This document shows, one piece after another, positions 39,435 to 40,953 of a stretch of 40,953 nt of DNA (within the stretch, counting starts at the first letter, position 1; every line of letters begins with the position of its first letter). This DNA is from a virus (Duplodnaviria > Heunggongvirae > Uroviricota > Caudoviricetes). Made by a program: the position numbers and the translations under genes. A model generated the notes under the pieces. It was not told the origin of the DNA. It made no database searches and saw only the letters and a list, made by a program, of their open reading frames with translations. The stretch lies in the IMG/VR virus record IMGVR_UViG_2703718856_000008, positions 1 through 40,953 of that record. One strand, given 5' to 3'.

Positions 39435-39644
39435 ATGGCTATCGCTGCAAGTTACACCATGCATCTCTATTGTGATTGCCTCCAGTGTACAGATGGCAAA
39501 TATAAGTCGCCAGACTTCGGTGAGTATATAGGTACGTCATGGGCTGGCTGTGCAAAAGAGGCGCGCAAGGATGGCTGGCGAATAAGCAAAGACAAAACGC
39601 GTGCTTTTGCGCCCGGGCATAAAGTTTTGAGGATTAACAAATGA
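39435..39644 (+). CDS. Hypothetical 69-aa Cys-rich protein
   Basis: ORF with CxC...C motifs (LYCDCLQCTDGKYKSPDFGEYIGTSWAGCAK); coupled to neighbours. Confidence 0.35.
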   Translation: MAIAASYTMHLYCDCLQCTDGKYKSPDFGEYIGTSWAGCAKEARKDGWRISKDKTRAFAPGHKVLRINK

Positions 39645-40345
39645 CCACTATAACCAAAGAGCGACTGCTGACAATCAAGCAGTGGCGCGAAACATACGGA
39701 CCGGGTAGCAACGTTGTACTGCCAGCAGAAGAAGCGGAAGAACTGGCACGAATTGCTCTGGCATCGCTGGAAGCAGAACCAGTTGCTTATATTTTCAAAC
39801 ATCCGGCCGGGAAATTATTCTGGGCTTTAACGGATGAAAGCAATAAAGAGCAAGCGGACGTTATTCCTGTTTATGCTGCCGCGCCTGCGTCGGTTGTGCC
39901 GGATAATGCATCAGAGCCTCTCGCTTATGCTTACAAAGAGCTTACGCCTGAGATTATGCGCAACCATTTAGCTGTATTCGAGCGATATGGAATAGCCCCA
40001 AACGATAGCTCTACCACAATTCAGGCACTGCGAATCGCGCTGGATGGCATAGAGCGGAGCGACGCCATGCTTCATGGTGCCGAACCTGTAAGCCAGACTT
40101 ACAAGTTGAACAAGCTGTCGGGCAACTCTCCGGCAACTCCGGATGGTTGGATAAGCTGTAGTGAGCGAATGCCGGATACCAAAACAGCCGTTCTTGTTGC
40201 CGTGGAGTTTGACAGGAAAGGTGACTGGCGAATGAAATGGGCGACTTACATCCCGGGGCATCCTGACGCTAATGATGGGTGGTTAATTCCTGGTGCGTCG
40301 TGGAAACCGTCACACTGGATGCCGCTACCAGAGCCTCCACTTTGA
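39641..40345 (+). CDS. DUF551-like phage protein
   Basis: 234 aa; C-terminus WISCSERMPDTKTAVLVAVEFDRKGDWRMKWATYIPGHPDANDGWLIPGASWKPSHWMPLPEPP resembles the DUF551 domain of lambdoid early-region proteins. Confidence 0.5.
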   Translation: MTTITKERLLTIKQWRETYGPGSNVVLPAEEAEELARIALASLEAEPVAYIFKHPAGKLFWALTDESNKEQADVIPVYAAAPASVVPDNASEPLAYAYKELTPEIMRNHLAVFERYGIAPNDSSTTIQALRIALDGIERSDAMLHGAEPVSQTYKLNKLSGNSPATPDGWISCSERMPDTKTAVLVAVEFDRKGDWRMKWATYIPGHPDANDGWLIPGASWKPSHWMPLPEPPL

Positions 40346-40441
40346 AAGCGAAGCTTATACATATCTTTTACATCAGCAATCTATTGTTAATCTCCAATCA
40401 ATGTTACGTTGTCATCTCTCTCATGCTTTGGAGGTAGTGAT

Positions 40442-40621
40442 ATGTCTTGTCCAAAATGCGGTTCTGGAAATATTGCAAAAGAAAAAACAATGCGTGGATG
40501 GTCTGGTGATTATGTGTGCTGCGATTGCGGATACAACGACTCTAAAGACGCATTTGGAGAGCGTGGTAAAAACGAGTTTGTCAAAATTAATAAAGAACGC
40601 GAAGGCAGCGAAAAAAGCTAA
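40442..40621 (+). CDS. Small zinc-ribbon protein
   Basis: 59 aa from the ATG at 40442 (GGAGG RBS); MSCPKCGSGN...YVCCDCGYN has two CxxC pairs. Confidence 0.45.
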   Translation: MSCPKCGSGNIAKEKTMRGWSGDYVCCDCGYNDSKDAFGERGKNEFVKINKEREGSEKS

Positions 40622-40684
40622 TTTATTTATTCATATATGAAAACAATGTAACCAATATTCGAATTGAAGAACTGAAAGAACACC

Positions 40685-40710
40685 AAGCCGCCTGATGGCG
40701 GTTTTTTATT
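40685..40710 (+). terminator. Intrinsic terminator ending the early-left operon before xis
   Basis: Hairpin GCCGCC-TGAT-GGCGG followed by TTTTTTATT. Confidence 0.6.
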
Positions 40711-40752
40711 ACCTGATTTGCAGGTTCGATTCCCTATTCGGAGATAGCACTC

Positions 40753-40953
40753 ATGCAACACGAACTACAGCCTGATTCACTGGTTGATTTGAAATTCATC
40801 ATGGCCGATACTGGCTTTGGTAAAACCTTCATCTACGACCGTATTAAGTCCGGCGACTTGCCAAAAGCCAAAGTTATCCACGGGCGAGCAAGATGGTTAT
40901 ATCGTGACCATTGTGAATTCAAAAATAAGCTCTTAAGCCGCGCTAATGGGTAA
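40753..40953 (+). CDS. xis: Excisionase / recombination directionality factor, AlpA-TorI family
   Basis: 66 aa; LKFIMADTGFGKTFIYDRIKSGDLPKAKVIHGRARWLYRDHCEF is a winged-helix AlpA-type excisionase; recalled as matching TorI of E. coli KplE1. Confidence 0.8.
   Translation: MQHELQPDSLVDLKFIMADTGFGKTFIYDRIKSGDLPKAKVIHGRARWLYRDHCEFKNKLLSRANG

Follow-up and report, generated by a model that had tools for sequence, protein, structure and literature searches.

An argW-identical, non-att element in the xis/torI leader of an HK620/Sf6/KplE1-type provirus and its putative role in gating the recombination directionality factor

Introduction

The transcription of int and that of xis are uncoupled in the phage family of prophage KplE1 of Escherichia coli. 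KplE1 has a copy of the 16-nt att core at each end, and its excision switch was concluded to rest on the expression of the recombination directionality factor (RDF), the control of which is not understood (Panis et al., 2010; PMC2951348). According to the same study, both IntS and TorI repress PintS through their recombination sites, the TorI sites in attL being GTTCG, GATCG or GTCCG and the IntS arm-type sites containing TAAA. In vitro, a 135-bp attR beginning within the final 20 nt of torI is sufficient for excision (PMC3509656). Hence, the xis leader is not required for in vitro excision, since this fragment recombines without it. In phages HK620 and Sf6, the annotated attP core is located between hkaC/gene 18, whose products are identical or near-identical to TorI, and int. 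Likewise, the Kapi1 paper places the att core between xis and int and describes its duplication at the prophage ends.

The window analysed here, i.e., the whole 40,953-nucleotide stretch of IMG/VR record IMGVR_UViG_2703718856_000008, is a provirus of the HK620/Sf6/KplE1 type, cut off at the int ATG on one side and at the xis stop codon on the other. An initial annotation, made from the sequence without database searches, had pointed to a 16-nt tRNA T-arm-like motif between a terminator and xis, within 40711-40740, and had proposed it as a possible attP core or att remnant. The nearest prior statements on this element are the predicted 'pI' and 'boundary sequence' annotations of HK620 and Sf6, and no description of such a leader element was found in the literature searched.

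Results

The two genes of the recombination module occupy the ends of the window, both on the + strand. The intS gene (1-1158) encodes a P4-type tyrosine integrase with arm-binding, central and catalytic domains (Pfam PF13356, PF22022 and PF00589), and xis/torI (40753-40953) encodes the RDF, a 66-aa protein which is 100% identical both to TorI of E. coli K-12 (prophage KplE1/CPS-53) and to PDB 1z4h; intS and torI are the names under which these genes are annotated in E. coli genomes. The initial description of the module as KplE1/IntS-type, with int and xis at opposite prophage ends, is confirmed. Both window ends cut attP-arm features. At the right end, 40948-40953 (+ strand) are the opening 6 nt of the first in the series of IntS arm-type repeats (GGGTAA, continued by AAT outside the window; GGGTAAAAT); past 40953, its continuation is seen in E. 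coli genomes, HK620 and Sf6, together with the remaining P arm and the attR core. At the left end, an inverted TTTTACCC repeat is found immediately upstream of the int ATG, already beyond the window. As dozens of IMG/VR proviruses have a terminus at the same xis stop codon, the window ends result from trimming to gene boundaries. Downstream of int, an acyltransferase-family gene runs from 1314 onward on the same strand; it is O-antigen acetylase-like, as Sf6 oac, and the position after int is the usual seroconversion position in this phage group.

Upstream of xis, a terminator scan detected an intrinsic terminator at 40685-40710 (+ strand; hairpin at 40685-40704 followed by a T-run), which closes an eaG-type early-left segment. 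The Shine-Dalgarno (SD) region of xis, GGAGATA, is located at 40740-40746 on the + strand, and its GGAG (40740-40743) is invariant across the aligned leaders and is also kept in leaders that have lost the element described below. The terminator hairpin (40685-40705) has the sequence to which the P22 annotation assigns termination of the antisense aI RNA and may therefore act bidirectionally; it also drives a weak minus-strand match to the Rfam family STnc130 (24 bits for a gathering score of 55). Inside xis, CGAAC, i.e., inverted GTTCG, is present at 40761-40765 over codons 3-5 (His-Glu-Leu), 37 bp from the GTTCG of the leader, and likewise at codons 2-4 of g341c-type genes, which could be a coincidence of conserved Glu-Leu codons.

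The 16-mer TTGCAGGTTCGATTCC occurs only once in the window, at 40718-40733 on the + strand, beginning 8 nt past the terminator T-run and ending 20 nt ahead of the xis ATG (40753). Its alignment to tRNA genes, as suggested in the initial annotation, revealed an exact match to positions 46-61 of the 75-nt argW gene (tRNA-Arg CCU; L004, 1023-1038), the argW sequence being taken from an E. coli lysogen with the same prophage (NZ_CP190333.1). These positions run from the last two bases of the variable loop, through the 5' T-stem and the T-loop, to the second base of the 3' T-stem, and they are directly 5' of the att core: in argW, the 16-nt core CTGCAGGGGACACCAT starts on the final base of TTGCAGGTTCGATTCC, the two overlapping by 1 nt. 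When both strands of the window were compared with argW, this 16-nt stretch was the longest exact match. Among 1000 simulated windows (first-order Markov), the maximum was 15 nt (4 cases) and 16 nt was reached in 0/1000; the analytical expectation for a 16-nt match is about 1e-3. The tRNA resemblance of the element thus exceeds a generic T-loop and is specific to the integration target of the phage itself, argW, which had been mentioned as one possible candidate.

The identity to argW ends after position 61. As no tRNA gene was found in the window by ARAGORN, the match is fragment-like, in agreement with the earlier view of a piece of tRNA instead of a whole one. Rfam models gave nothing near thresholds for a tRNA-like or RNA-family structure at the element, and a tRNA gene or pseudogene was ruled out from the negative ARAGORN and Rfam results. 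In the xis frame, no ATG, GTG or TTG is present upstream before the preceding stop, and the stretch is not coding in E. coli. The conserved core GTTCGATTCCC (40724-40734, + strand) contains the pentamer GTTCG (40724-40728) and is identical to the putative left (B) core-type half-site of attB. A 5-nt spacer, CTATT (40735-40739), separates it from GGAG in the window.

The position of the genuine att cores was obtained from lysogens. In E. coli genomes, the 3' end of argW contains the attL core, which precedes the int ATG by about 160 bp; the attR core is about 75-90 bp past the xis/torI stop codon, adjoining dsdC. Direct repeats, which the initial annotation had suggested looking for, do flank the prophage, but they consist of the 16-nt core CTGCAGGGGACACCAT, duplicated at both prophage ends, and not of the motif itself. 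CTGCAGGGGACACCAT was not found in the window, where its best match has 3 mismatches (at 39445), nor in 1159-1313 downstream of int, the region that had been named as an alternative location for the att core. Since the cores are located outside both gene-boundary ends, the window is devoid of both att regions. Two layouts had been envisaged, a circular genome cut at the xis-int junction with attP nearby or att sites just outside the window; the lysogen junctions support the latter. That the element could be an attP core or a functional att site was suggested by its tRNA-like sequence, its position adjoining xis and the use of tRNA 3' ends by IntS-type integrases. However, it is CTGCAGGGGACACCAT that is duplicated on either side of the prophage, beyond the window, and that HK620, Sf6 and Kapi1 have between xis and int; the window contains no copy of the core, and the 135-bp attR without the leader recombines in vitro, so that this proposal has practically no probability left. 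Indeed, the junction sequences of E. coli genomes and phage records refute an att core identity for an element that is upstream of xis and shares only its last base with the core. This case illustrates that tRNA-like fragments in proviruses trimmed at gene boundaries should not be read as att, the real cores being situated here beyond both the int and the xis ends.

The DNA preceding the element is mosaic. The homology of the window to P22, Sf101, Stx phages and others stops at 40710, the 3' end of the terminator, and the homology to K-12 KplE1 starts at about 40703. Among E. coli proviruses (n = 80), three unrelated upstream contexts were encountered, each closing with a hairpin and a T-run and joining the module at TTTTTATT(G/A)CCTGATTTGCAGG (start of the joint: TTTTTATT(G/A)CCTG). 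Because this joint is shared by unrelated upstream contexts, the element is placed at the extreme left edge of the conserved xis-attP-int module. A G/A polymorphism distinguishes TTGCCTGATTTGC, found in HK620 and Sf6, from TTACCTGATTTGC, found in the window and K-12 (40711-40722 compared with 2909-2922 of L001), and both alleles are common in E. coli proviruses.

Then, the xis leaders of 107 IMG/VR loci with g341c-type and Edwardsiella-type Xis, about 35-75% identical to TorI, were surveyed, giving 62 distinct leaders. The sequence GTTCGATT(C/T)C(C) was present in 48 of them, starting 26-30 nt (mostly 29) ahead of the xis ATG, the remaining 14 consisting of 4 degenerate copies, 6 clean deletions (ttattgcctgg joined directly to agataatgatATG) and 4 unrelated leaders. 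The element was found in Escherichia, Salmonella phage g341c (leader AAGTTCGATTCCC), Citrobacter, Serratia, Pantoea and Edwardsiella (the copies of these last four being from GTDB genomes) and Erwinia phages. It is tandemly duplicated in Erwinia-type leaders with a 16-bp period (L008, 1786-1815; L217, L218 and L220) and in L214 with a 13-bp period, periods which do not fit a helical repeat; Erwinia phage Midgardsormr38 carries cAGGTTCGATTCCC twice in tandem. The element is missing in Klebsiella phage RCIP0114, Erwinia phage 49, Dryocola, Tatumella and Rouxiella. The more distant AlpA-like loci (L035-L038) are without this leader arrangement, and no T-loop-like copy was found in P4, where vis is far from attP. 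A search of viral contigs with the pattern GTTCGAATCC-N-GGAG-N-ATG returned at least 120 loci, with no TorI-like ORF downstream among the matches listed, and a protein search yielded only Enterobacterales relatives belonging to these same clades. The att core is of the tRNA-Arg(CCU) type in every lineage found, leaving no target variation to compare.

The family consensus of the element is TTcCAG-GTTCGATTCC-C. Its 5' flank TT(C)CAG is equal to TTGCAG of argW at 5 of 6 positions and, therefore, the family consensus, and not the window copy alone, resembles the 5' half of the argW T-arm. Most lineages have 7 bp between GTTCGATTCC and GAG, compared with 5 bp in the Erwinia type, 8 bp in Pantoea L020 and 14 bp in Serratia. 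Over these lineages, 10-11 nt of the element remain intact where Xis is only 35-45% identical and the flanking non-coding DNA is unalignable, and such conservation argues for selection and against a decaying relic. A vestigial site or att remnant, as considered in the initial annotation, is a poor description of an element that different genera keep at a nearly constant distance from the xis start. The clean deletions in at least six leader contexts and the absence from several relatives show that the element is accessory.

The relation of the element to the integration target was examined through the half-sites. The 51 distinct C half-sites of attP/attR, left of TGCAGGG, read ATT(A/C/T)GATGT(C/A) directly followed by TGCAGGG. 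In argW, GTTCGATTCC abutting TGCAGGG shares TTnGAT with the C half-sites in the same register and, right of TGCAGGG, GACACC is an imperfect inverse of GATGTC. From this register and this inverted symmetry, we infer that TGCAGGG (7 bp) is the overlap region and that its flanks are core-type half-sites. With these predicted positions, GTTCGATTCC corresponds to -10 to -1 of argW relative to TGCAGGG, and the leader element would be an exact copy of the B half-site. The only free position of the C sites is -7, and most natural single-base variants of the leader element are also at -7, GTTAGAT having arisen in 4 lineages and GTTTGAT in 1. Besides, a conserved CCCCTGC(A), the core overlap TGCAGGGG in inverted form, was observed in the P arm of every lineage examined (HK620: L001, 3205-3211). 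It is located to the left of the att core, at a distance of about 17-25 nt, and might represent an additional core-type site or the partner in a hairpin.

A different set of sites varies in the P' arm, i.e., from the att core to the int ATG. In the L181, L184, L188 and L190 lineage, repeats CATTACCC, CATTTCCC or CGTTACCG occupy the positions of the TorI sites, where the comparison loci L001, L008 and L009 have (C)AGTTCG(C/T). The Xis recognition region of this lineage is AGFTAKYFY, compared with GFGKTFIY. Together, the changes in the P'-arm repeats and in Xis look like a natural specificity swap inside one recombination-module family. One CATTACCC and GTTACGG are present in the left flank of the leader of L181, L159, L162 and L182, about 9 nt upstream of the element, and a flank with both is also seen beside GKTF-type Xis genes. 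Besides, GTTCG(T/C) repeats are found downstream of the AlpA-like gene in L036 and L038 (Synechococcus contigs), which suggests that GTTCG recognition is old in the AlpA/TorI-like protein family.

Discussion

From these comparisons, it is likely that the sequence upstream of xis is a conserved functional leader element of the RDF gene distinct from att, and it probably helps to control the timing of prophage excision. TTGCAGGTTCGATTCC is the E. coli-lineage form of a conserved non-coding element located in the xis/torI leader of the IntS/TorI (KplE1-HK620-Sf6) module, and its invariant GTTCGATTCC would correspond base for base to the left (B) half-site of attB, i.e., the argW T-loop region abutting TGCAGGG. 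The element may act at the DNA level, as an operator or a roadblock between the terminator and the xis SD, gating the expression of the RDF. The likeliest ligand would be the core-binding/catalytic part of IntS, which must recognise the same sequence in attB and attL. Protomers sitting on the arm-type repeats GGGTAAAAT, about 220 bp away where xis ends, could bring IntS to the element, and IntS, constitutively made in the lysogen, would thereby keep xis down. Taken as a whole, i.e., a conserved RDF-leader element that would be a DNA-level site gating xis with IntS as its most plausible ligand, this statement is advanced tentatively, with a probability somewhat short of even. Considered separately, the identification of IntS as the putative ligand is possible, yet rather doubtful. 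A fuller scheme, in which a decoy of the attB left half-site placed in the xis leader would let lysogen-level IntS block or loop out xis, perhaps by bridging from the arm-type repeats, such that the recombinase would directly gate its RDF, is still more speculative and would be considered unlikely as it stands.

Several observations are in line with IntS binding. The argW target is constant in all lineages, and the leader keeps GTTCGATTCCC in the lineage in which the P'-arm RDF sites changed (L181/L184/L188/L190). The TTnGAT register shared by the C half-sites and argW, and the variation at -7 common to the C sites and the leader element, also speak for this reading, as does the known repression of PintS by IntS and TorI through their recombination sites. 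Other observations count against it. The C half-sites drift, with GT at -3/-2, whereas the leader element always keeps the B-type TC, and therefore IntS binding alone would not explain the invariance of the element. A candidate inverted partner half-site, GAGAT, is found at 7 bp in most lineages but at 5, 8 or 14 bp in others; GAGAT is also the SD and is kept where the element is lost. In addition, core-type sites are usually of low affinity, the element is dispensable in the at least six leader contexts with a clean deletion, and P4 is without an equivalent element. Recognition by IntS is nevertheless the explanation retained here, as a working proposal with less than even chances, since no other explanation appears to fit better.

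The presence of GTTCG in the element led to a TorI operator being considered first. TorI would bind GTTCG (40724-40728) in its own leader and limit its own synthesis, as it represses PintS via such sites (PMC2951348). The pentamer never varies within the element, the conservation sets in at its left edge, GTTCG repeats also follow the distant AlpA-like genes of Synechococcus, and L181-type leaders have CATTACCC, their RDF-type repeat, 9 nt upstream of the element. However, GTTCGATTCCC itself is unchanged in the lineage whose P'-arm RDF sites switched to CATTACCC-type repeats, and ATTCC, the invariant 3' half, is not in any mapped TorI site, these sites being followed by C or T and then by variable bases. 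Moreover, TorI binds phased arrays cooperatively, whereas the element is usually in single copy and its duplicated copies are spaced by 13 or 16 bp and not by 10 or 20 bp. Autoregulation by TorI is hence unlikely. The nearly constant distance to the SD would be accounted for by an effect at the RNA level, in which the element in the xis mRNA would pair with the SD-to-ATG segment (GUU..AUUYCC with GGAGAU..AAC) and sequester the ribosome-binding site. UUCC often pairs with GGAG in single-sequence folds, and in a hand-drawn 10-pair hairpin 83% of the cells are paired, compared with 35-65% in slid registers. Nonetheless, this hairpin has 0 compensatory pairs, RNAalifold gave no consensus structure from 16 diverse leaders, the folding energies are ordinary (z from -0.3 to -0.9), and shuffling the 11-mer barely alters SD pairing (0.82 vs. 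0.71) or the MFE. The invariant CG would fall in an internal loop, and the MFE structures vary by lineage. A pairing potential with the SD does exist but is indistinguishable from conservation, and such a sequestration mechanism is improbable.

The location of the element, 8 nt into the recombination module from its left edge, at which P22-like homology ends, and the label 'boundary sequence' given to this region in Sf6 are compatible with a neutral fossil, i.e., a piece of argW or an old att junction carried at a mosaic boundary without present function; so are the match to the tRNA only 5' of the core and the loss of the element in several lineages without obvious harm. A fossil would however hardly have kept 10-11 nt intact, and its position relative to the ATG, over a range in which Xis falls to 35-45% identity and the flanks become unalignable. 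Its 3' side resembles neither the overlap nor the right half-site found at real att junctions, and 16 nt is too short for gene conversion from argW. A relic of this kind accordingly has little likelihood. Even less probable is a function as part of a cII-activated 'pI' promoter serving integration, an annotation of HK620 that homology extends to Sf6. The HK620 annotation places a promoter and a cII-binding site over the equivalent of 40708-40746, with TTGC-CTGAT-TTGC at that spot, and the Sf6 'pI' is there as well. The canonical spacing of the lambda cII repeat is N6, whereas it is N5 here. The first TTGC is TTAC in the window, in K-12 and in many proviruses, and the second is missing in other genera that keep the element. 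A sigma-70 promoter scan of 40300-40953 found none. Furthermore, a promoter upstream of xis would be expected to supply the RDF along with Int, an output unsuited to integration. A cII-dependent promoter of the lambda pI/pRE type was consequently rejected, given the N5 spacing, the TTAC of the window, the unconserved repeat and the absence of a predicted promoter.

Situated directly upstream of the RDF start codon, the element provides a concrete, mutable candidate control point for excision. This candidate would apply to Sf6, HK620, Kapi1 and CUS-3-like phages and to the common argW prophages of E. coli, the torI region matching 2952 of 5426 complete E. coli genomes. Gating of xis by IntS, if true, would be a control point common to the phages and prophages that integrate into argW.

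Regarding known systems, the element is the same DNA as the 'pI' and 'boundary sequence bsq2' of HK620 and Sf6 (about 98% identical), annotations which are predictions. The cII repeat and any promoter hexamers are, however, not conserved where the element is, and its identity to argW is not annotated in these records. As a phage-borne copy of part of the target tRNA gene, it is reminiscent of the tRNA-derived identity blocks of attP. Those blocks hold the 3' part of the tRNA, so that the tRNA gene is restored after integration, whereas the leader copy corresponds to the part 5' of the crossover region, which never needs replacement, and is about 300 bp from attP. The closest sequence relative is the B-side half of the IntS site of attB/attL in argW, identical over 16 nt in the window and over 10-13 nt in the family consensus; unlike it, the leader element is followed by neither the overlap TGCAGGG nor the right half-site GACACC, lies away from the prophage junctions and is dispensable for in vitro excision. 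With the PintS operators of attL, the element would have in common a candidate site for a recombination protein ahead of a recombination gene, and both contain GTTCG. The former are arm-type TAAA IntS sites and TorI arrays ahead of intS, and the latter would be a single core-type-like half-site ahead of torI. The PintS system shows that the sites of recombination proteins can serve as operators (PMC2951348).
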